Of a stretch of 64,000 nt of DNA, positions 11,440 through 62,735 are shown piece by piece. The DNA is from Ophelia neglecta (Eukaryota): contig OZ260663.1 of the NCBI GenBank assembly GCA_965285935.1, forward strand, positions 64,294,001 to 64,358,000. Reading direction: 5' to 3'. The position numbers were made by a program, and so were the translations under genes. The notes under the pieces were generated by a model that saw only the letters and a list, made by a program, of their open reading frames with translations, made no database searches and was not told where the DNA came from. Each line of letters starts with the position of its first letter. The stretch's first letter is position 1.

Positions 11440-11518
11440 GCTAATTGGTTCTTTTCTTATCTCTTTCAGGTATGTATTCATTCATCTATAGAGATATGCT
11501 GACAAGGTATATGTAAGT
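11440..11518 (+). other. Candidate recursive splice site (3'SS directly followed by 5'SS) with a downstream RS-exon donor
   Basis: gctaat-tggttcttttcttatctctttcag|GTATGT (junction 11469/11470). Downstream donors aag|gtatat (11507) and tat|gtaagt (11513). Confidence 0.55.
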
Positions 11519-17170: not shown

Positions 17171-20100
17171 GTGATTTACATGCTTCAGTTTCTAGAGGGA
17201 CATGTCTGGCTATCAGTTCTGTAAATTTACAATAAAGGGGTTTGATGATTGGCTGTTAAGATCCCAAGACTTTCAGTTGTCATCATGGTAAATGAATAAT
17301 TCAATTGTTGAATTATTTTATTTTCTTGATTGAATGATCTCACCCTACATCAAAATTTCTAAAGCCTTCTGAAAGGTTATTTAAACAAAATGTTTATGAT
17401 AATTTTTGGGTTGTTTTCGTAAAAAGGAGCAACTTTAAATTCTAAGGAGTGTTTATGAAATTTAAGAATTTGGCTAAATGTATTTGCCATGTTCAAACAA
17501 ACTGCCATGAAGTAAGCCATTTCCTGGAGCACTTAAGGCTCCAGAGAGGGAGCTTCCATAGGTCATACTAAATCTTTTGAGTTACATGCACATTTAAAAT
17601 TTAATATATATATTTTTTTTATTAATGTACAATCATGTATATAATTATTTGAATATGATATCATATCCCTTTATGAATTTTTCCTTTTTTCATGAGAATC
17701 AGAATAACAGTCCTTAATTCAACCATATAGTTCAATTAAATGTTGTATGTTTAGTCAGATGTTCAAATCTCAGAAACTGACTCCTTGTGGATGCATGTAC
17801 ATATACATATGTACAAAAGTAATGTACATGTACATTTACATAATTCTTCAGATAACACAAAGGTAACTGAGTAGGTCTAAGTGGAAATGATTACCATGGT
17901 AGGATGTCATGTGACCCACAATTAAGGATCACAACATTAGCCAGAAAATGAAGCAAAGTCCAACTAGTGAAACTACAAATCCATCAATCAGACAAAATTG
18001 TCCATCCTTTCCTACATGAATAAATAATGTTGTCTCTTGAGAAAGGAATGGGCATCCTTTGTGCTTGAGAAAATTTCAAGAACATTTAGTTTACCTTTCT
18101 CCCATAAAATAGTTCACTTGCTTTAAGAGAAGGCCCTAGAGAAACACTTTGTGGCAACATTTTGTCCCTTTCTCTTTTGTTGACCAGACAAGTGTTAGAA
18201 AGACGAGACTGGTGATAAAACAGGGAACAATAAGCCACGGGACATAGTCCAGGCTAATTTACCTTTGTAGCTCTCTCAGAGGGGACAGTGTAAAAGGATC
18301 ACCGTCAAGAATGGCAGTCTGGTTTTATCAAATCACCTCTTGCTGTCCACGCGACCTGACACATAATATAGCCATGATGCATGCACAATACATTGTTCCA
18401 GCCATCTTTGATCCTTGCAAGCTTCCTGCATGAAAACTGAGGTCATGTCAAGTTCACAATGAGAATATGAGATTTAAGACAAATATCAAATGACTAGAAA
18501 ACAGGCATGCTATGTTACTATTGTATCTTTGCACATGATCTTATAGACTTGTGAAAGAGAACTGCATATTTTTCATCAAAATAAAAGACATTTTGAAAGA
18601 AAACATGCAAGAATATATGATAAAGAATAGCGCTTGAGCAACATAAATTCAGCCAGCAATGTTATCTGTCATTGATTGGGGAGAAAAAAAGTCTGATAAG
18701 TGGATGAATGGTCAATGACACATTAGATGCCCTTTGGTCCATTTTTCATGCACTGCTTTGAGGTGATTGGTCAAAAAAAAAAAATCATTAGAAAGGGACT
18801 ATAAACAAAGCAGTGATTTAAGCTGAAGCAGGAAATTGAATGAGAAGCCTGCAGCTGAAGATACTGCAGCTGAATAGCAGTGAATTTCCTTAAAAGCCTA
18901 ATCTAGATATGATCAGGTGGTGGCAGTGGCTTGGATGCAGCTGGACTGAGGGGCGCTGTACCTTTTTGGTTGACAGGCTCTGCTTTCCACATTGATTCGG
19001 TGCTGATGCTGGTCCAGTCACTCACCATCACCTGATGATCTAGGGTGTACATCCTTGTTAGCCTTACTGTATCACATGCTAAAAGCCATTACAAGCACAC
19101 ATCATTTTCAATCAGCCATCATTTCCATCAACTTGACTACAGAGTTTGCTAGCGGCTTGAGGTCACGTTTTTGGGGCTGATTATAGCGTTCAACAGGTGA
19201 CACTAACTCACCCCTGAAATAAAACATTATAATATGGATGCTCGTATACCAATTATCATTGCCTGTAAGAAAATGGCGACCTGACATGTCATGGTAATTT
19301 TGGGCCAATGTTAAACTAGAGAAGGCCACGAAAAATATTGTTTTTGGGCACTGTGCAAGTCTACCACATGTATATCAGGGGATAAAAAAGGTCTCTCCCA
19401 GGACACTTACAGCATCAACCAGTGAATACTGTCCAACATTATTCCTAAAAGTGTTTCAGAAAGCCTCCAAAATTGACATTGTTGCCTAGTTTTTTTGTCA
19501 GTCCAAGCTGACTAGAAGAATTTTAGTTGGAAAGTTCAAATTGTATGGGATTGACATGATCAGTATCAAAGGAATACCAGTCATATGTTTTTGCCATGAC
19601 TTTACACAATCATTCCTTAAAAAAGGAGCCTAACGTTTAATTTTGCATGTTAGGACTCTGGAATATCTTTTTGTGCCAGTGCAAGAATTGAAAATAAAGC
19701 CCAAAGCCAATTGTTGTTGATTCCACCTAGCACCAGGCAGTTGTGTTATCCTCATAAGTCATCTAAAAGTAGCCCTGTCCGGTTTTGCTTTGGACTCAAA
19801 TGTAGACATGTGGTGTCTCCACAGATATTTTTTTTACTGGTGCTGGCCACAAAAGTGGAAGGAACAAGAGACCTAATGCATTTCCCATTAATTAGATGAG
19901 GATATGGTAGGAATTCAGATTGAGTTGAACATTTATTAGGCAGCATGGAGGAAGCAGAATTAAAAGCTTGCTCTCAGATTCCTTCTAATCCCCAGCACAT
20001 GTCCGGGTTCGGCAATGACAGCCACTCCTCTACAATGGTTATTTATTGGTTTTCTTTCTACCAGCCCAATAAAAGTTTAGCAATATCTCATCGAATCTAT

Positions 20101-23100
20101 CAGTGGCACAATCCTGTTCACTCGCGCCAGAGAATTTGACTTGTCGTTCTAATCTCACTGGTGACAGCTTTAAGACAATTTTGAATTGAGAGTGAATAGG
20201 GTATCAATAATGCCTATTGTGGTTTATTGGAAAATATTGGCCTCACACCCATAAAGTTGGTTTGCCTGAAGATATTGTGATTTAATAGAGAGTGGAATCA
20301 TTAGATATTCGGCGGCTGTGGCTTGGTATTATGTGGTGTCATCTATCACTTGAGCAAATCTTATCCGGCGTACATTATTGGCCTCCGCCGAATCCTTTGA
20401 CATTGGCGTAAAGACATATCCCTTCTCACCTTCCTGTGACCCACGATGAAAGTTGCCAGCGATATCAGGCGGAATTCAGAATCGCCTCTTTCCATGACTT
20501 GAATGCCAAGAACCCTTTTCACAACACAGTTCATTGAAAGTCGATCAGAAGGCTTCACCTCGGTGGTAAATATTAATAAAAAAGATGGAGAGGGGATGGA
20601 TAGGGGCTGTAATAGAGCTAGAGAGGCATACCAGTTTGTTAGCAAGTTGGAGGCACCGAGTGAGAGATCAGCACACTAAATTAGAGCTATCTGCTGGTCG
20701 CATGTGAGGGTGTGCTTTGCATGCTACCTGCTCATTGGGAACCCACTCCCTCTCCAACAGTGTCAAGTCGCTCACTGCAGAATCATGGCTCTATTGATCA
20801 TGTTTTATCTGTTCAAAAAGAAATATGGTGCGGCCTTGATCCCTGGTGTCAGATGCAGATACTTTTAATGTTAATTGAAAGTACTGGGTGGTCGCGTAAT
20901 GCGGCTCTCCGCAGACAGGTAAAGCCCAGTTGCTTAGAACACTTGCCTTTTAATGGAATGTTATTGCAGGCGGCTCTTGTCACCAAGTATAGAAGCTTTG
21001 CCATCTTCTGTCAAATTGATTAATGCAAGAGTAATCTAGAGTTGGTGGTAATCGCCACCACAAATAAGAAATTCTTTATGTGTTTACTGCCAAGGTTGGT
21101 TTAATAATGCACTAGCAGACTGCCTTTCCCAGTAGTTTTATCCTTTCTGGCTTGCAAAAAGTTATTTTTATATTGCTGGAGCAAGCTTTCAAATGGAACA
21201 AGGGTTGACAGAATGTAGCACCTACATCAATCTCAGACATGTTGCTAAAGTGATTGTGTGTGAGCTGTTGGATGCATCCATGTTGTAGGTGTACGAGAGA
21301 AATAAAGAGCCAGAATGAATCAGGTGATCAGTGGCTGGCACGCATCAATAAACCAGCGTATGAGGAATGGAAAATAGCAAGTACAAATTTGCCTAATGAG
21401 ACCATATGACGAATTCAAAAAAACAGTCTGTGTCTCCTTGGGTTAATGTCTTGAGAAGCTAAATTTAGTATCAGCTAGGATTACGTGAATGTGGTCTCTG
21501 TACCTTTTTTCTCTGCTATAAAGTTAATACCGCCAGCAGACTATCTTAACAATCTAGCTGCTGAATAGAGCAATACAGGTAGTTATCATGTGAAACATGT
21601 ATGGAAGGCTACATGAGATTAGTTTAACTAGATGTTGTGTCCCTTAGAAAGTAGCATCTTGCCGTTTCCTGTGAGTGCTCTTTACTGCAGTGTTTCTCAG
21701 TTCATTTCTCTAAAGGTATTCATTGCACACATGCATGTACATGTAGATGTACATGTATGGTGCTGGTTTGTTTTGTGCTGCTACAAGATATGTGAACAGC
21801 TGAGAAGCCTTTCAATTGTCTCACATACATGTATAATGATGAATGCCTTTTTTGTAGTCTATTCATAGCTTTTCTTTTCACTAATCTAGAAAGAGAAAAA
21901 ACATGGTGAGAGAACAGAATCAGTGTCGCTAGTTTGAGAAGGTGGTGCCATCAGTCAGTTGTCTGCTACTTTCACAATCTGTGGCTAAATCTAAGCCGGT
22001 GCCATGCCCTGTGGACAAGTTGTTGCAATGCCCTCAGATTTCCTGCCTCTGTGGCCACCCTGCCTCTCAGGCTTAGCTCAACCACCTGATGCTTACTGGA
22101 ATATACTTATAGGCTCAGCTGATGTAGAGCTGTGTTGATTTTAGCACCCATTTTTGGTGAAGGAGCAGGCAGATAATCAATAGTCAAATAGACTTGGTTG
22201 AGGTCTGAGGGCCTTCATCACCTCCACCAGACATCATCAGCGTGCACCATGGCAGCCAGTTTGGAGGCAACTCTCTCAACAGGGACATGTCAGCCTTGGA
22301 CTTACTCCATAAGGCCAGCTCTTCCTGGGCAAAATTAAAATTGGGGCTGATGGAGAATCTTAGAGTGGGCTATAAAATACATATATCTTGCTCAATAGGT
22401 GGCCCTTCACAACCTGCAAGCTGAAGCCTCAAATCTTCTGCTGCTGAAAATCGCTTTTTGAAAAAGTGAAGTCGGAAATTGAGTTTGCCCATGTAGTCAT
22501 GTTTTATGTGGCGTCTACTCTGTCTTGAGACTCCATGTCTGACTGGCAGTTGACAGCCTGCACCTTTATTTAACAAGGGACAATCAACCAAAAGACACCT
22601 ACAAGTACATGTACACTCCATACCAGGCTATGTCCCCCACACTTTACTTTGACAAACACATCACTATTACACAAAGCCATCATCTCTATCTACATGTAGT
22701 CTTCACTGAATTGGGACAGAAATACATGTATATTTATATCATTTGAATTCGTCTCCAGTAAAAAGAGTTCCCAACACATACCTTAGGTACATGTACACAT
22801 ACATGTACAAGTGTTATATTGGTCATTTTTGCCCAAACCTTTTTCATAGCAGGCAAACTGGACGGAGAGATAGCTTACCTTGTATTCTGTACACAGTCTA
22901 TCCACAAAAAAATTTTGATTTCAACACTGGGTCTTTGTTATCAATAAAGAAAGCTGTGTATAAATATATAACCAGGGGGGTCTACTGGGAACCAGAACAG
23001 TCTTTATAGTGCAATCTCTTTATTTTGGCACACAATGTCTAGGAATGTATTGAAAGCAAATAGCAATCCACATGCCACAAATAAAATGCGGAGCACTAAG

Positions 23101-23295
23101 TTTGCCCTGTTCGTCACTAGCTCATATGGCTAAGGCATACATTGTCAGGAGATCAGAGAGTCTAAGACCATAAAACGGCGATAACCTTTAATTGATAATG
23201 ACCTGCACCGTTGTTCAGATTACACAAACCTTTATTTCTGGCTACAGTTAATTAAAGCAGATGGACTTTAGAAATGTGTAGGGATATAGCAAGCT

Positions 23296-23870
23296 CATAG
23301 AAATGCAATCAGGTGCTCTTGTATTGTAGTAAGACCATAGAGATCAGTCAGATACTCATGTATTGTAGTTAGATCATAGAAATCAGTCAGATACTCATGT
23401 ATTGTGGTGAGATCATAGAGATCAGTCAGATAGACAGATACTCATGTATTGTAGTGAGACCACGGAAATCAGTCAGATACTCATGTATTGTGGTGAGATC
23501 ATAGAGATCAGTCAGATAGACAGATACTCATGTATTGTAGTGAGACCACGGAAATCAGTCAGATACTCATGTATTGTAGTGAGATCATAGAAGTCAGACA
23601 GGTGCTCATGTATTGCAGTGAGATCATAGAAATCAATCAGGTGCTCATGTATTGTAGTGAGATCATAGAAATCAGTCAGATACTCATGTTTTGTGGTGAG
23701 ATCATAGATATCGGTCAGATACTCATGTATTGTAGTGAGACCATAGAGATCAGTCAGATATTCATGTATTTTAGTGAGACCACAGAAATCAGTTAGATAC
23801 TCATTTATTGTATTTAGACCATAGAAATCAGGCAGGAGCTCATAAGTTGTATTGAGATAATAGAAACCAA
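23296..23870. repeat. 39-bp minisatellite, about 14 copies (consensus tcatgtattgtagtgagatcatagaaatcagtcagatac)
   Basis: The periodicity is directly visible. Two units carry an extra 8 bp (agacagat, ~23432 and ~23518). This repeat explains the repetitive ORFs 23512-23889(-) and 23530-23796(+). Confidence 0.95.
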
Positions 23871-25071
23871 TCAAATGTTCAAGTATCATGTTTCCAATAG
23901 CTGTTTTCTGGCAATGTTACACAGACATAGACTTATTTCGATTTAGCAAGTTGATAAGTTGTAACTCAGTTGGATGCTGCCCTGTAAAGTTGTTAGCAGT
24001 GGTGAAAAATAAAGTTTTTTAGAGTGAGCCACCAGAAATTCACATTAGGCGACAACATTGAATATCAAATTTTTACTTTATCTAGAGACATAGTAGTTTT
24101 TCCTATGTCCCTAGCTGCAGTGTTTAAATGTACATTACGATGCCCTGTTGTGGTTAAAAGGAAGTTTTTCACTCTGACTGTGGCTGGTTGTGGGAGTAAG
24201 AGTCCCAGGTGGTATTTTTTACCTACTCAGGAACATAGGAATACCTCCGAACCTAGATAGATCCAACATATCGTGCTAGTATAACAAACAGTCGAATTCT
24301 TTCTCACATGGTTAATAAAAAAACACCTTGAATTTAATAGTTGCTTTAATAGACAGAGTGCCCCAATAGTAATCATTTTTGGCTTTGAAACCCCACTTGC
24401 AAGATTTCTTTTTAAACTGAAATGATTGCTGAGAATTAACATCTAGCTAGTTTTATTAGCAGCATTTTCCCAGCAGATTTGTTTACCTTCTCACTAGGCA
24501 TTCAATCGAAATTGCCTTACAAGGGGAATAGCCAAATGGGAAATCTACAGTTCTTAAACTCCATTGTAATGCCATCCACAAACACTGATAAGAGGATCAA
24601 GTTTTCTTTGCCCTCCCCAATGATGGCCAATTAAACACTGAAGATTATACTGTTTTATTTTTTCTAATACTATTTTCATAGCAGGGCTGGCATTGAAGTG
24701 AAGTACTTCCACGTTACAAATTTAACATAGAACTGAGATTAATCCAATAAAAATTTGTTAGACCAAGCCATCAAGGTGCATGCTTAGGATACCTGGTGTC
24801 TTTCAGAGCTTGTGGCATCACAGTCAGCTGAGCTAATAAAGAAAGATGAGAAATGAAAACAAATTAGTTTTGTGTGAGTATGGCTTGGTGCAGTGGGATT
24901 GCTGATGGAATATGAGACCACGAGAGTGTATCCTATAAGTTGGCTCTTAGTGTGTCCTGGGGCCAAGGATGATCATCAACCAGGCTATAGGAAGAAACCT
25001 CAGAGAAATAACTTCCTTATCTCCCAACCTTGACTCAAATCATCTTTCTACCTGCCTTTTTTCCTTCACAG

Positions 25072-25133
25072 TCCAATCAATGGCTGTCGGTAAATAGGTC
25101 TACATGTAGTTTAGCTTTAACTCTTTAAAAAAG
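25072..25133 (+). other. Candidate cassette exon with two donors (18 nt in frame, or 62 nt with a premature stop)
   Basis: cttgac...catctttctacctgccttttttccttcacag| acceptor at 25071; donors tcg|gtaaat (25090) and aag|gtaagt (25134). Confidence 0.45.
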
Positions 25134-28100
25134 GTAAGTGGTGTTGAAATGATAACATTTACAAAATTCACATGTACAGGGGTTGATAAATTCCTCTTTT
25201 TGCTATGAAAGCTAAGTTGTGCATGTCTTTGTAATGTGAATATGCATGCAGCAAAATTGTTGTGATGTCGAGATCTTCAGCCAGTCTGGGGGTTTAATAC
25301 CAGAACTTGAAAATGAAGTATTTCAGCCAATGACAGCAAATCCAGCAAATTGGTCCAATACTTTGCATGTATTGAGATAGCTCAGAACCTATTTGATGAG
25401 GCGGTTATTAATATCACTTGCTCCGAAAAAAGGAAGGGGGAGGGGAGGGCCACACAAAAGGGACACGCAGAATAGGAGGGGGTGGGGGAGTCAAGAAAAC
25501 ACATGCACAAAGAAGTGGCCCACAAATACTAAGTTGAACCTGTTGTTTGTTATACCTGTAAAGAGGGCTGAAATACTTTCACCAAGATTGATCATCTAAA
25601 ATATATTCACATCTTTTTTGCTTTCTTGTTTCATTTGATTAGGCACCATTTTGAAATAACTGAAAAAAAAACAAGAATTATTTTGCACCCTATTGCGGTC
25701 TAAGTGACAAAAACACTAGTGATTCTTACTCTTGGCTGGGGTGGGGAGGGGAGAGGGCATTTAAAATGTTTAGTCTTCTGAAATTAGTAATTCTTCTCCC
25801 AATGCCAAATAATAAACTTGCATGTTGAGAATTGAACAAAGAGTTTTCAGTGATTTCTAAATGTACATGATACACAGTGACTTTAGGCTGAAATGATGTT
25901 TTTGAAAGACATTTGTTAAGATAATGCCTCAATGAAAACCTCAGGGAATTAGTTTCCATTTACAAGATTGACTTGCATTGATTAATTGGGTATGTAATGA
26001 TGTTTCCATGGAGGCATAACCCTAAAACAATACGAAAAAAATGGTTTCTTAGCAACTCCTTAAACTTGAAGACATTTTATAGGCTACTGCTATGTGCACA
26101 CCGGTTCCTTTAATAGTTTAAAAAAAACTGCTCTATGTAGTCCAAGTCTACATAGAAATCATTTTGCCTCCTCAAATCCATACTTTACAATTGTCTTATA
26201 AGTGCATGGGACCCCTCCCCCCTTATTCTTATTATTATCAGATATTATCAGATATTAGCTGAATCAGGTAAAAAAGGAATATTTACTTTACGGTGTTGAA
26301 ATTATACTGGCCACCGAGTTTGGTTTTTGGTGCTGCAGCAAGGCAAAATATTCCTGGAGAAAATTTGTTTCTAAATAGATCTGCCCCAAAATAATGTTAT
26401 GCTAGGAGTTCTTTTGGCTGATGAATTCTTGTGCAGGTAATTGAAAGGTTGCAAAGGTAGGATGGCCAAGGGGAAGATGAATGTCTGTATTGGTAGAGGC
26501 CTATATTAATCAATGTTTCCTGTCCTGAAGCACTGGTATAGCTCATTCTTCTCAATGGCATGCTTTTAGACTGGGCCGGCACTGTTCTCCAGGTCAACTG
26601 GAGTGTGTATTCTGCTACCGGAGCCTGACATTATTTGATCTATTGCAGTGGATGTCCTTCCTGCTGGCTATAAGGTTATGTACTTAATATGTCTCTTACT
26701 GCCAATGTCCTATTGAAATCAGACTTTTTGCTACATTTGTCTCAATCAACAAAAAAAGAAACATGGTTATTCAGAAATGCAGCTAGATAATCAAAATCCT
26801 TTTACATCGTCTTAAATATTCAGAATATGAGAAGTTGTAGAAATAAATTTCCATGAATGAGGGATTGTTTCCCCTTGTTTGTTCATTATTCTTTAAGGTG
26901 AGGATTACATCAGTCAGTTTCCTCAGCAGCCTGTTTGAGCTGCCATCTCAGATTGGTATCTGGCTAATGCTTCTTTCTCTGGGCGGTATCTTTAGTGTTT
27001 TTGACACATTGCATAGGTGTCACCTTTGCAAGGAATTTCTTCCGAACCAATTGACAACTAGATTTCAATTCTGCATAATTCATTTTCGAGATACCATACA
27101 GTTACTAGTATTAGGGTACAATCTTGCAATTCAACTGTTGCTAGATGTCTGAAGCCCAGGCTTGTGAAATTGATTCAATGATTACCAAAAAACTTTCAGG
27201 ACACAACAAATCTGTGCTGATTCCTTTTGACAATGCTGAGTCAATCAAGACGGAATAAATTTGTTTACAGGCAAACGTGAAACCTAAGATGGCATGTACC
27301 AATGTTTTCATGCCACTGGAGGATGTGGTGGCTTTCCCTTGTACCCTTGATAACATGACAAGACGTGATTGTAGTTAGCGATTTGGGGCCTGGGTTAATT
27401 GTGGAGAGGACGTATCCTCTGTGAGTCCACAGGGAATGCTTCTGCACCAGACTGAGATTGACACCTCTTTCATTTTGGTCCTTTATTTGCAGCCTCTGAG
27501 GAAAGCTTGAAAGGCACAAGTCTCTTGATACCAGTATAAAAGCCTGTGGGATATGGGAAGATTGGAGTATGGAGTTGGTAAATGACTGCCAATGACTCCT
27601 CAGGTGGTTGCTATATCCAAAATTTATTGGTTGGCCTGATATGTCAAACTTGCCCAAATTCTAGGTTTGACGACACAGATTCAACTTGCTTGCAGACAAA
27701 TAAATATACACGTAGCTATCCAAATGGCTCCATATCACCCGAGACGGCCAAATGCTCAAAGGCTTCCTTGCGGGAGACCAAGACTAATGTCTCTGCGGAC
27801 GCATTAAAAGGAGGAGGGGAAGGAAATTGAAGGATCAAAGTCTGAAATGAGTGCTATGACTTTAATCCTAATCAGTTTTCTTGGCCTCTCAGATAGAAGG
27901 TGCTTGGTGTGTATGTGAGAGGATAGAGGGAAGTGGGTTAGAGCTAGCAGAGTGAGGCTGGGCCCATACCTGTCGGCCAATCAAGCTCCCTCTTTCATGT
28001 CTACAGTGGGGTCAACTTATTGTGGTTAACAGGCTGGGACTGGACCTGTTCACGTCCTGATGGTGAAACATGATTTATGAGTGACTTGTGGTCATGTAAC

Positions 28101-31100
28101 CTCTCCAGCCACAGAGGATAAGAACTGCTGACTGGTTATCAAACAATACCAGACGTGGCTACAATATAAACCTCCTACAGGCCTATCTCCTTCACCAACC
28201 GGCAAGAATACTTCCAAATTGCATTCTTAATTAATCATGTAAAGAGAGAGCTAGAGTAGGGCAGTTTAGAGCTGGGTCCATTGATTGGGTGTGTGTGCCT
28301 GGCTGGCCGCTTGCTCTGGCCCTCTCTCGCAACTATTGCCTTTGTCCTGCAAAACACTATTGTAACTCACCGCCACCATATGCCAGCCCATCGCGTGAAT
28401 GTGCGCAAAGCATTAGGCAAAAGAGGAGCTACTTTTGGTTTTCATTGACTGCACCATTCAAGTGATGTTTTGGACATTACCATACCAAGTATGTATAAAA
28501 CCACTGTCTGCTTTCAGTCGTTATGTGTGGTTCCTTGTAGGTTCCGTGTTCCCATTGTGTGGTGTGCTGGTGATCCTGCATGTGGTATGGGATGGGTGGT
28601 TCCCAAGTAGCTCCCTGCTGTTGGAGCCTACTGCTAGGGTTAAAGATGATGACCGTGCCTGCCGCCTGCCGTTTGGGGGACTTGTGTGATCACTCTGTCT
28701 TCAGGGTGCCTGATGACACTTTGTCTCCACCAAGACCATTTGTCTCCACAGTGAGTGTAGTCCAGGAGGATTGTCAGGGTGACTCTCCCCAAGCCTATAC
28801 CATCAATCTTACTATCTGGGAAACGGACGCCCATGGCCAGCACATCCGTCTCTGTTACAGATCGCCGACAACCATGATAATACAATCATATTACAGTGCA
28901 GCCAGAAAGGTGCTAAGCCAGCAGGTTGAGATAGCCATTACTGGTCTGTCAACATTAACGTGTACCCTGCTTCATCATCTTAGACATTTTTAGATGTGCT
29001 GGTGCTGAAAGCTATTTCTTTTCTGCTAAAGTTCACAGGAACCCAGCTCTACAACCTCATCATAACAATACCTCAATCTAATGTGTCTGTATCTGTCTTT
29101 GTTCTTTTTTAAGAAAATGAATTAAAAAAAGGTTTATTTGCTTTGCCTTTCAAGGCCAACAACTCTCTTCATCTTCATTTTGACCATTATTTCCATCATT
29201 TTGATTTGTTAAATAACAGGGTGTTGATGGTTTAACAGCACCAATCTAATGGGATGATGTATTGTGATGGATTTTTAAGATCATTGCAGGGTCTTAAGTC
29301 TCCAGCTGGTGTCATTAATCTGAAGATGACAGGTATGCTTCACGATTCAAGCTGGACAGGAGCAGTTCTGGTAGCATGTGAATTCTGACTGGATCTAAAC
29401 ACTCTATGAGACATTGCTGAAAGTTAATCTGCATCAATTTTTCAGTATACAGTTTTGACTAATAGGAATTATACTTGAAACATTTCTATTCCATGTAAAT
29501 TAAATATATGCTTTCTAATCCGAAATTATGCCCTAGGTATGTAGATGAGATATTCTTTAGGGTTGGTTGCTACCTGACTTCATAAGTACTCTGGTAATGA
29601 TGTTAAGAATGTTTTGATATTGGTGAACAACTAAGCTTGAAGAATCCAAATGTTGAATTGAACAAACATACCAGGGTACATGTTATGTTATCACTGGTTT
29701 TATAACAGCATTTTAATCTAGTTACTAAATTTGACGAGCAAGCCAACATTAGAAACATGAGAAAGGCATTTTGACCTTGAAACATTTATGTTTGAGTTTT
29801 TATAGAAGTGGCATTTGTTAGACTTTGGGGTGTACCTTGTTCCCTTGAGTCTAATGTAATGGCCGCTAACACCTCAGCTGAGCTATAGGACTGTCTATCA
29901 AAATTACCCAACGGGTCTCCCTCATATTGGCAACGGAAATGAACTGTTATACATTGTCACCACTTCCGCCAGTCAATATTCCAAGGCTGCCTCGGTATCA
30001 TTTGCTGTGCTGGTGTGAGTATTTCAGTGGTGAATAGTGTTCTTGATTGTGACCTAATTGAATTTGAGGAGCAGGGCCTTGCAATGGCATGGTGAGAAGG
30101 GAACATCAGACGACAATTGTCCATATTTGTTCACCCAGCTGAGAGGGCATGGTGTATTATCTAACACAGTTTTATTGTTTTGTGTGCAATATTCTTCTTT
30201 CATTTGGATTCTGTTTGAACTAATCGTTGTTAGGGTAGTTGAATATTTAAAGTTGGATGGTGTAAATTTAAATGGAATGGCACCAAGTACCTGACAAGGG
30301 TCAATTTATACTTACATTCTTAGAACTCTCCATTTCTTCCTTAAACGCCATAAGTGTTATTTGTTCGTATTTTTTTGGAAGAATCATAACCAATTGCTGT
30401 CTGCTGTTTGCAAGAATAAAACAAAATATGTTTAAGTTAATGCTTTAACAGGTCAAGGCAGATGGCATATGGTGAGTGATAGGTTTTTATCAAACATACA
30501 CTTATGTACATGTATAAACATGTACATATACATGTACATGTATGAGGAATAAAATGTACAAAACTGTTATAGTGATTTTTACATATTGTAATCATGACTA
30601 GAAAGATAGCCCCATTTAAGGCCAAATCTCAACCCAGTCTTAGGAGTATAAATTCCCTGAGTATGGGGTAACAGGGTGCTAACATGTACTAGACTATCAC
30701 AGATAATATGTATTGATGTATGTCACACAGGAGTGAGGTGTAAATCTAGTCTTGTTGCTGGAGGACAGCTGCCATAAAATCTTTCACATGCCCAGAGAAG
30801 CATGCTGAATCCACTTGTATTATGTTTCCACTCCTCAGAGCTCCTCAGTTGATGATAGTTAGTCTTCATCTATGAGCACAATCCAGACAATCAAATACAT
30901 GCCACTGGCCATCACGGATGACCCAGCAATTACAAAAAGCATACACCAGAGACAACTTAAGGCTGGGCTGAGAACACAAAACGCCCAGTTATGTCCTCCT
31001 TAATGGTACATTGTATGGATTGGTGAGTAAAGGGAATAGGACCATCATCATCTGGAGCTATCTGGCCTCAGTCTTTATGACATGGTTCTTGATGGCCACC

Positions 31101-39594: not shown

Positions 39595-39930
39595 TATGTA
39601 TGGTACTGTACAGGTCATGCTGTAGGTCTCAGCTGATGTTTAGTGGCTGTTTAATAGAGGCCTAGATGTCATTGAATTTTATTTGTTAATTTATATCCAG
39701 GTTAAAAAGTCACCACCACAAGTATTGGGTGGGTGGCAAACTGTTGTTTATTTACCTTGACAGTTTTTATGATGGTATACTCAAGAGTATTAAAACATTC
39801 AATGATGATAGGAGAAAGTTGTATTTTGCCCCAGGTAGGTATTAACAGGCTTGATAGTAGACCAGCCTTGCCATCTGATTTCTTGTTTATATTCCGCAGG
39901 CAGTACATAATCAATAGCTTGAATTCTAAG

Positions 39931-42386: not shown

Positions 42387-42435
42387 ATGAACCGTCCAAT
42401 ACAAGTGAAGCCTGCAGACAGTGAAAGTAGAGCAG
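42387..42435 (+). CDS. CELF4: CELF3-6 / Bruno-like RNA-binding protein, internal coding exon (end of RRM1 plus RRM1-RRM2 linker), 49 nt
   Basis: Acceptor gactaatttgtttcag|ATG with branch-like ctaat. Translation MNRPIQVKPADSESRA+G closely matches the CELF3/4/5/6 motif MNRPIQVKPADSESRG. Donor GCAG|gtagga, phase 0 in and phase 1 out. The symbol marks the CELF3-6 subfamily; an invertebrate copy is co-orthologous to the vertebrate paralogues. Confidence 0.96.
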
Positions 42436-54100: not shown

Positions 54101-57100
54101 AAAACCAACTGACACATCAGTGTTCTACACATTGATCATGCCTCTGATTCATGTATTGAACACTAAGTAAACTTTCTTAGTACAATATTTGTACATCTTG
54201 CAGTTGCCTACATTGTGTGCCAGCCAAATTGACAGTCAATGTTTAACTATATCCATCAATGGCTGCTTGGGCTTCTCAGCCACATTATATCAGGAATGAG
54301 GTAAAACTCTCAGCCACATTTTCAAAGAAACTCGTATCTCTTAACCCTTCAGTCCTCACCTACGACATAGCCATTCAATTGTGGCCAACATTAGTCATCT
54401 GATGGCAATTAAGAACCATTTGCAATCTATTTGCTGCTAAAATCCTTCGATTTCTGCTCATTGTCTCTAGCTTTTAGCTCAAATTTAAAATGAAATGGCT
54501 TCAAATATTGATATGAGACAAAAGCTTTTTCATTCAAAGCATATCAAGCATTAATGATGTCATTTATCCATCTTTTTCAAGCGTTCATTGTGGTGTTCTA
54601 CATGGACACCCATCTCAGTGTTAACCTGCTTTGTCCAAATTGCCTGACACTGTTGCATTTCATCCAGATGATCAAACATCAGATTGATGTTTTTTCCATA
54701 TATATTATGGCTGATTTCATATCATAATTCATGCTATAATATCAATTAATCAAATCATATTTTTATCTCTGGTTTTGATTCTCAACTTAGTCACTTGCTG
54801 TGATATCATTGTAACATGTTGCTAGGGAACCCTTTCAATGCAAGTTGTATACATTTAATTAATTCCAACTCATTAGTGTGATCAAAGCTGTTATGCCAGC
54901 AGTAATAATCTTTACCTGGGGTATGATGCCATCACACACGAGCTGGTTACATGATAATGTGCTGATAATCAAGCTAATGAGTTCTGATGAGCTACAGGTG
55001 TGGTTCACCTTACAGGTGGTAATTAGCTAGCTAAGACAATGGCTGTTCCTTCTGACTCGAGGCAGACTGGCAGTTCAGAGAAAAAACTGGATGTGTTATA
55101 TCATTGTATACATGTACATCTGCCTATGAAACAGTTACCCTACAGTGTCCCATTCAAAGCTCCTCAAACAGGACAACAGAGGCGGTAATAGTACTAGCCC
55201 TTGTTTGCTAACAGAGGCACCGCTGTTGGCTGGCAAGGTAAACCAAGTGCAATCAGAGTCTTTGAAGGGCCTCCTGACCTCGCCAGATGACATACAAGGA
55301 CAAAGCCGCCTAAATAGCCCGCTTAGATCCTATTATAATAATTAAAATGAAAAAGGGTGAATTCTGCAGCTAGCCAACTGTGTCTCTTAGTCTTTGTTGT
55401 GATTTCTTGGCAGGGCTGATAATAGTTTGGAGGAAGTTGCATTGAATGGTCAGGAAAGCAGTGCACAAAGCCCGGCCAGTCACTGACCAGACAATGGGGT
55501 GTGTGGCACATGTCCCTGACAACCTTTGCCCCTGTTTTCCCGGCACACGCCCGGCACACTTCTACCCCTTTGTGTGTGTGTACACCTCGCCACATTGTCC
55601 CTAGAACCTGGCTTGTGATTGGCCAAGAGCTCGGCCCGCCTGCACATGGTAGCCAGCTCTCCCACATTAATATTAATGCAGCATGAAGGACAGAGAATCA
55701 GATAAACAGAGTGAAGCAATCACTACATAGAAGGGAGAGTAGGGCGGCAGACGGAGATAGTAACACTGTTTGGATTCTATCCGTCCATTGTACATAGTCC
55801 TGACAGGAGCACTTGTTTTTCTACATAACGGACACTCAAAAGGCACGGAGATGAAAATGGTCGGAGGTAGGTTATCCTGTTATTGTTGGCAATTGCGACT
55901 GTACAGCCTCCAATATGCCAGGGTTGCTGGTGCTGCTTCAGTCCTCTATTGAGCCTCTGATTGCATGTCGTCTGCATGAGCAGCTTTGTTAGCAATAGCT
56001 TTACCATAACATTATCTGTGTCCCATATGCCACTAGAGAAACAGGCATGGGGGTGGAACGGCTCATGGCAACATTTAAAACAAGATTATATGAGCTTTTC
56101 TGAGTATTGAACAGGAGGGTTGGTATTGACAGTTGTTTGTGGCCAGTGTGTGACCTCTGGTTGGATCCAGAGCGGAGTAAGCAGCCATCTGCCACTGTCT
56201 GTGTACAGGCAGACTTCCTGGCAGAATGTGTAAGTAGGCCATGCAGTGCCTAGGACACAGTGTGGCCATTGAGCTAGGAGTCAGGCCTGTACAATGACAG
56301 TGCCAGGAATACTGGGGATACTAGGCAGGATAGACTCAGCTGCCAGTCTGCTGTCTGTCTGTATCTAGGGTCTGTCTGTACATTATGGTCTGAGATACAT
56401 GTGCAAGGGGTGCTATAATTATACCAGCCTCTAATCACAGGCTGTAAAGCTTAGTGATTACATGGGACAGTGTTCCGTAATGGCACCTGACCCTTCTTTG
56501 TCAGCAGCAAAATTGGGTATTATTCTGGCCTGATCAGCATTCAGGGAAGGGCACCCTGTGAAAGCCAGCATTTTAATGCACTGCTCTCCATTAAATGAAT
56601 CGGTGGGCATATCAGCCTGGCACAGCAGTTGCAATGAAGGGGCTTAAAAGAAAAATGGACAAAAAGCTTGATCTATGGGGCCCCTCTGAGTTGCATGTAT
56701 CATTAATCTTCTCCTGGTTGTAAGCTGGTGATGTGTCATAAATTCTGGTATTGAGAGCTTCTAGGAAATATTCCTCAAGCATGTGCTGGGCTTTACACTA
56801 CCCCCAGTCTGAGCTCCCTCTAGACCCTAAGACTTCTGTCTCGAGTAGGGGGCTTGCCTATGGTGGGCAAGACATGTATATGGGAGGCCTTATGATGATA
56901 CAGGACAGGTCCAGCCCCATATCAGCATTCTGTGCATGTCCCCCATCACTGTCAGCTAATATAATCTGCTGACTTGCAGACTGATCCACAGTGATCATGC
57001 AGAGCAGCAGATAAAGAAAACTACCCCTCCTCCCCACACTTCCAGCCATGAATTATGCATCAACAGGAAATTTGGTCAGCATTTTAGAATGTGATAATTG

Positions 57101-62606: not shown

Positions 62607-62735
62607 AGGACAGAAAGTTGTTTGTGGGCATGCTGAATAAGCAACAAACAGAAGATGATGTCAGACAACTCTTTCAGCCCTTTGGTTCTATAGAAGAATG
62701 CACCATCCTCCGGGATCAAAATGGAAACAGCAAAG
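62607..62735 (+). CDS. CELF4: CELF3-6 / Bruno-like RNA-binding protein, internal coding exon (N-terminal half of RRM2 including RNP2 LFVGML), 129 nt
   Basis: Acceptor cttttttgttttgcttcag|AG. The final G of the previous exon plus AG gives GAG (E), then [42 protein letters not shown]+G. Donor AAAG|gtaagt. The frame is continuous with exon 42387-42435. Confidence 0.97.

Follow-up and report, generated by a model that had tools for sequence, protein, structure and literature searches.

A predicted poison exon followed by RBFOX and UNC-75 motifs in the long second intron of a CELF3-6 gene of Ophelia neglecta

The second intron of a CELF-type gene of Ophelia neglecta contains one acceptor followed by two donors, an arrangement that poses a question: is it an exon that the gene uses, and if so, would its inclusion insert six residues into the protein, stop translation early, or switch between the two? 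An earlier note had proposed such a switch from the letters of the DNA. We re-analysed the window, that is, the whole stretch of 64,000 nucleotides in which the cassette lies, together with flanking DNA of the same genome. The coordinates, the letters and both donors given previously were all found to be correct on re-reading, and the elements of the cassette are as follows:

25029..25034, + strand: candidate branch point CTTGAC, its A at -39, which fits the branch-point consensus yUnAy
25035..25071, + strand: pyrimidine tract and CAG acceptor (AG at 25070-25071), with one TGC at 25053-25055
25072..25133, + strand: 62-nt poison exon predicted from sequence and frames, with an in-frame TAA at 25126-25128
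25072..25089, + strand: possible 18-nt in-frame form (SNQWLS), ending at the weak donor 1, TCG/GTAAAT, at 25089/25090
25131..25139, + strand: donor 2, AAG/GTAAGT (13.1 bits), whose +3 base is 25136

The frames and the in-frame TAA had likewise been read correctly, since exon 2 ends in phase 0 and exon 3 starts with MNRPIQVK. The open frame is kept both when the cassette is skipped and when the 18-nt form is included, while the 62-nt form stops at codon 122, upstream of nine or more junctions. The RNA fold of 25020-25280 is ordinary (z -1.61; 13 of 200 shuffles were equally stable), and a 301-nt stretch around the cassette is single-copy in the genome.

The host is a CELF3-6 (unc-75/bru3-type) gene with three RRMs, whose best matches are named CELF3/4; comparison of its exons with Capitella protein P0021 gave 74-100% in the RRM parts and 79-100% for the RRM1 and RRM3 exons, values that make an annelid source likely. 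It is the sole CELF3-6 copy among the 23 matches listed for this genome, and a separate CELF1/2-like gene lies on contig C7. In the window and its flanking DNA the gene extends over ~160 kb and has 12 or more coding exons. Exon 2 ends in phase 0 with ...KTLPG at window position -50422, i.e., ~50.4 kb before the window, so that intron 2 is 92,808 nt long, with the cassette 75.5 kb from its start. Two exons of the host gene fall downstream within the window:

42387..42435, + strand: exon 3 (MNRPIQVK...), the last strand of RRM1 and the downstream partner of the cassette
62607..62735, + strand: exon 4, the start of RRM2

In a structural model of the annelid protein P0022, the exon 2/exon 3 junction falls in the loop of RRM1 between the helix at 101-113 and the strand at 134-137. 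The model therefore agrees with the place previously given for the insertion, the loop before the last beta-strand, which it puts between helix 2 and that strand.

Are the splice signals of the cassette better than such a long intron would offer by chance? They were scored with weight matrices from 37 acceptors and 33 donors of this genome, placed by homology in three genes, namely two CELF genes and that of clathrin heavy chain; 19 of the 24 clathrin junctions were used, the five ambiguous ones being left out along with the uncertain sites of both CELF genes. The acceptor had been called one of the strongest in the window, which holds by pyrimidine count and fails by the genome-trained matrix. 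With 17 pyrimidines in 20 positions it is among the 10 richest YAG sites in intron 2; its score of 5.6 bits ranks 160th among the 3872 AG dinucleotides of the window and lies above 6 of the 37 real acceptors. The matrix score is low because the candidate has C at -5 and A at -4, unlike most real sites here, where T occupies -5 in 29/37 and A occupies -4 in 2/37. Donor 2 ranks second among the 3778 GT dinucleotides of the window and equals the best real donors. Donor 1 (5.2 bits) scores above one of the 33 real donors and has to compete with the top-strength donor 2 just 44 nt away. Judged by these scores, both sites flanking the 62-nt exon should be usable, the acceptor lying within the range of real sites and donor 2 at its top.

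Chance was assessed in 200 simulated introns (order-5 Markov), with the candidate's own values as thresholds, a choice that flatters the candidate. In 1/200 simulated introns an acceptor as rich in pyrimidines was followed within 100 nt by a perfect donor; the relaxed configuration, an acceptor with an 8/9 donor within 200 nt, appeared in 53/200; and an in-frame microexon with a donor like donor 1 appeared in 137/200, such sites being expected 1.2 times per intron. In intron 2 itself, AG/GTAAGT occurs twice in sense and twice in antisense, and 7 of the 23 strong donors lie less than 200 nt from a pyrimidine-rich acceptor. By themselves, the splice signals would probably indicate a pseudo-exon, chance not being convincingly beaten.

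What lifts the cassette above chance is a cluster of RBFOX and UNC-75 motifs downstream of it, which is absent from the earlier note. If CELF3-6 regulates its own gene, the motif of its nematode orthologue is expected near the cassette. UNC-75 recognises (G/U)UGUUGUG and, when bound in the intron after an exon, activates that exon (PMC3627589); RBFOX motifs act as activators when they lie no more than 200 nt downstream, also on NMD exons in genes for RNA-binding proteins (PMC3967051); and at unc-32 exon 7a the two proteins act jointly (PMC3585155). The UNC-75 motif had been chosen from published work ahead of any inspection of the site, and the TGCATG motifs were spotted by eye during that check. 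Four motifs follow donor 2:

25220..25225, + strand: TGCATG (RBFOX motif), +87 from donor 2
25243..25248, + strand: TGCATG (RBFOX motif), +110 from donor 2
25257..25268, + strand: UNC-75/CELF3-6 element TTGTTGTG, +124 from donor 2 (motif from PMC3627589, PMC3585155)
25364..25369, + strand: TGCATG (RBFOX motif), +231 from donor 2

Nowhere else in the 160-kb gene, sense or antisense, do three TGCATG fall within 300 nt (Poisson P 0.0013), and in 828 kb of DNA examined, both strands included, there are seven starts of such clusters; Prp8 DNA served as a motif control only. The element (G/T)TGTTGTG occurs three times in intron 2, once inside the same 300 nt (P about 0.01). The 12-mer TTGTTGTG agrees with the proven unc-32 site at 11/12 letters, a level reached by two sense 12-mers in the gene, one of them here, and by two antisense ones. 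None of the other 22 donors of at least 8/9 in intron 2 is followed by more than one TGCATG or by any UNC-75 element, and among the 33 constitutive donors 30 have no TGCATG downstream and three have one. On the sense strand of the CELF1/2 paralogue, no comparable TGCATG cluster was found. Measured with 10 known motifs as a panel, the site was the most extreme of the intron, the three intron windows at this level (3/1851) all lying at the cassette; 0.2% of antisense windows were equally extreme. In 61% of 309 windows one hexamer or another attains P 0.0014, so the argument depends on RBFOX and UNC-75 as prior choices. The genome encodes an RBFOX-like RRM exon on contig C8; a Pfam Fox-1_C search, uninformative in itself, gave no match. 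Both UGCAUG and (G/U)UGUUGUG occupy the proximal downstream intron, which is the activating position, as candidate binding sites.

Taking signals and motifs together, we favour, with modest confidence, the explanation that 25072-25133 is a real, normally skipped poison exon whose inclusion RBFOX and the CELF3-6 protein itself would probably promote. Its middling acceptor would cause the exon to be skipped by default. RBFOX bound to the three UGCAUG and CELF3-6 bound to UUGUUGUG would raise inclusion, being expected to activate because their sites lie downstream of the exon, and inclusion would rise where both proteins are abundant, likely in neurons; the neuron-specific action is suggested by analogy with UNC-75. 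The included form, with its stop at codon 122, would be removed by NMD, which would give negative feedback on the level of CELF3-6, tuned by RBFOX, while donor 1 would see little or no use. If the exon is real, the joint RBFOX and UNC-75 code would extend from nematode target exons to the self-regulation of CELF3-6 in a third animal branch; the case would be a testable example and not a new mechanism.

Sequence variation was taken from three runs (X1-X3), DNA-like and of different haplotypes; 3 of the 29 variant rows were dropped because they came from repeat contigs. The runs cover the intron and show no joint at the cassette. All three are labelled as one sample; over 22000-28200 of the window, X1 is identical to the assembly, and X2 and X3 depart from it and from each other at full depth. 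At 25136, position +3 of donor 2, run X3 carries T, so that A and T alleles exist there. Against a background variation of 0.43% (112 sites in 26,201 nt), a chance hit is expected with a probability of 3.8% for a 9-nt site and 17% for about 43 signal bases, so the variant fits neutrality better than tight constraint. The T-allele donor scores 9.0 bits, which is mid-range, and its 9-mer is that of a constitutive clathrin donor of this genome; the site is thus weakened and need not be killed. The flanks are not poor in variants either (24931-24933, 25136, 25167). For the exon, the acceptor and the four motifs no variant is listed in the three runs, a comparison of low power. The natural +3 variant offers a ready allele test of the cassette.

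Whether the 18-nt form has relatives elsewhere was examined in 470 homologous proteins, a set with redundant isoforms and two annelids; 410 of them span the junction, and the 60 non-spanning ones were left out. A poison exon is invisible in protein sets, and these counts therefore bear on the microexon alone. The SNQWLS-like insertion that the earlier note suggested seeking in related CELF proteins was present, whole or in part, in 0/410 homologues, only two of them annelid. Insertions of any kind at the junction occur in three (P0022, P0172 and P0122), none resembling SNQWLS, and we rejected all three as relatives of the microexon: those of P0022 and P0172 begin with V and look like read-through of a donor, and that of P0122 repeats the preceding exon. 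Among the 175 lophotrochozoan sequences, 121 span the junction and 120 of these lack an insertion, the exception being Malacoceros P0022. In the equivalent loop of RRM2, insertions are found in 64 of 170 lophotrochozoan isoforms; annotation therefore does capture such events in these genes. A degenerate microexon pattern gave no matches in metagenome contigs, an uninformative set.

How, then, do the other explanations fare? The cassette might be a chance pseudo-exon of the 93-kb intron, where splice-like signals and motifs coincide and are never, or noisily, spliced. Perfect donors are equally frequent on both strands (2 versus 2), the relaxed configuration is common in simulated introns, the acceptor is weak by the genome-trained matrix, donor 2 is polymorphic between flanks that are not depleted of variants, and the site was chosen out of a very large scan, all of which would be expected of such a pseudo-exon. 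We had at first held it to be clearly the likelier reading and lowered it because of the downstream cluster: the RBFOX and UNC-75 motifs, which played no part in choosing the site, form the most extreme combination of the intron and lie on the activating side, and we now regard a pseudo-exon as unlikely. It is very improbable that the exon or its donor belongs to a 5' leader transcribed from an internal promoter of intron 2, which would yield an RRM1-less protein from the ATG of exon 3. Exon 3 does open with ATG, and mollusc isoforms include 17 that begin before exon 3 and 28 that begin before exon 4. Against this, CpG at the site is at background (3 in 500 nt, versus 13 at an apparent alternative first exon ending at 55866), and no reading frame opened by an ATG runs to donor 2 in phase 0; a MAV-like start at 25080 is unneeded, given that the mollusc MVAG exon is better matched in intron 3. 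We accordingly rejected ATG GCT GTC G at 25080 as the mollusc MVAG first exon, the better, promoter-like match being the one that ends at 55866. Recursive splicing at the cassette was also rejected, since its acceptor is not followed by GT; ratchet-like AG/GT sites in intron 2 number three in sense and five in antisense.

The switch between donors, in which donor 1 would yield a neural microexon (SNQWLS in the RRM1 loop) and donor 2 the poison form, stands in its poison half, which gains from the downstream motif cluster, and loses its microexon half to the weakness of donor 1 and to the homologue counts; as a whole we consider it rather improbable. The cassette has traits of fly eMIC microexons, namely a weak 3' site, a long AG-free zone (64 nt before acceptor 25071), a UGC near the acceptor and a weak 5' site (10.1101/2021.02.24.432780), and coding sequence for the SRRM_C (eMIC) domain is present in the genome. 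RBFOX promotes microexons (PMC4317164). The RRM1 loop appears to tolerate an insertion of nine residues, as in annelid P0022, whose modelled RRM fold is retained; this natural insertion at the same place served as a stand-in for the 18-nt isoform, and the equivalent RRM2 loop carries the insertions counted above. Donor 1, however, is weaker than 32 of the 33 real donors, and sites like it are expected more than once per intron. The UGC discriminates poorly, as TGC also precedes 12 of 18 constitutive acceptors, and the insertion is missing from every spanning homologue, although the set holds two annelids and microexons are often lineage-specific (10.1101/2021.02.24.432780). Neither a strong CUAAY branch point nor a UCUC-rich tract was found; the candidate branch point is CTTGAC, and the sole CTAAY within 300 nt upstream is at 24833. 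From the sequence, the SNQWLS microexon is unsupported and a switch between donors 1 and 2 is without positive evidence. A little less probable again is a three-way neuronal switch at the one acceptor between skipping, the 18-nt microexon and the 62-nt poison exon, with eMIC acting upstream and RBFOX and the gene's own protein downstream. If true, the six-residue insert in the RRM1 loop would retune RNA binding, a splicing factor would link its dose to the structure of its RRM by the choice of one donor, and the natural donor allele would shift the balance.

The 62-nt poison exon that we favour has counterparts in known systems. Like the RBFOX-tuned AS-NMD exons of Jangi et al. 2014 (PMC3967051), it would be an optional exon with a stop, located in the gene of a splicing regulator and followed by UGCAUG; there RBFOX enhances NMD on top of autoregulation, and the same is predicted here. 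Those exons are conserved and were demonstrated in mouse with iCLIP and RNA-seq, whereas the present cassette is known from DNA alone; the Celf text of that paper names no AS-NMD event in a CELF gene, and its exon lists could hold one. With unc-32 exon 7a and the UNC-75 targets of C. elegans (PMC3585155, PMC3627589) it shares the joint RBFOX and CELF3-6 code, but 7a is a coding, mutually exclusive exon of another gene, while our cassette would target CELF3-6 itself and carries a stop. The eMIC/SRRM3-4 microexons (10.1101/2021.02.24.432780; 10.1101/2024.09.17.613571) are alike in the UGC, the AG-free zone, the weak 3' site and the 18-nt in-frame option; the cassette differs from them in lacking the CUAAY branch point and UCUC-rich tract, in having a stronger, frame-breaking donor 44 nt on, and in having no homologue with the insertion. 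That SR, hnRNP and other regulators use poison-exon feedback is well established (PMC7764535). The SR/hnRNP and SNRPB exons described there likewise act through inclusion of a PTC-bearing exon; they lie in highly conserved sequence, whereas donor 2 of the cassette is polymorphic. In a search largely of literature outside subscription journals we found no report that a CELF3-6 gene, or any annelid, has a poison exon, and a look-up of terms in PMC13326565 (a CELF review of 2026) and PMC7764535 returned none for CELF3-6.

Several other elements of the host gene were observed. At about 55600-55866 (+ strand), in intron 3, lies a likely alternative first exon encoding MKMVG, with donor GAG/GTAGGT leading in phase 1 onto exon 4. 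Its start resembles the MVAG, MVGG and MTVGG starts of 28 RRM1-less mollusc isoforms; a reverse CCAAT box (55617), a GC box (55742), raised CpG and two TGCATG downstream accompany it, which suggests a conserved lophotrochozoan internal promoter. The single-copy stretch 19900-21100 (CpG observed/expected 0.59, versus 0.24 as the median of the gene) is a possible enhancer or internal promoter. At 11469 (+ strand) a strong acceptor with a CTAAT branch point is followed by GTATGT, resembling a recursive splice site of the ratchet-like kind counted above, which is no commoner in sense than in antisense, with an 8/9 donor 159 nt on. An exon-like stretch of 134 nt at 39701-39834 (+ strand), 2.6 kb before exon 3, combines the second-best acceptor of the window with donor CAG/GTAGGT; no TGCATG follows this donor, and inclusion would break the frame. 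Beyond the window, in the intron before the YPAAY exon, three (G/T)TGTTGTG stand within 80 nt (L018, about 2370-2450; window-relative 106371-106441), a possible second self-regulation site of the host gene. Finally, P0022 and mollusc isoforms carry insertions that vary among lineages after exon 3, in the RRM1-RRM2 linker, and in the RRM2 loop, which marks these introns as hot spots where small exons arise or donors shift.
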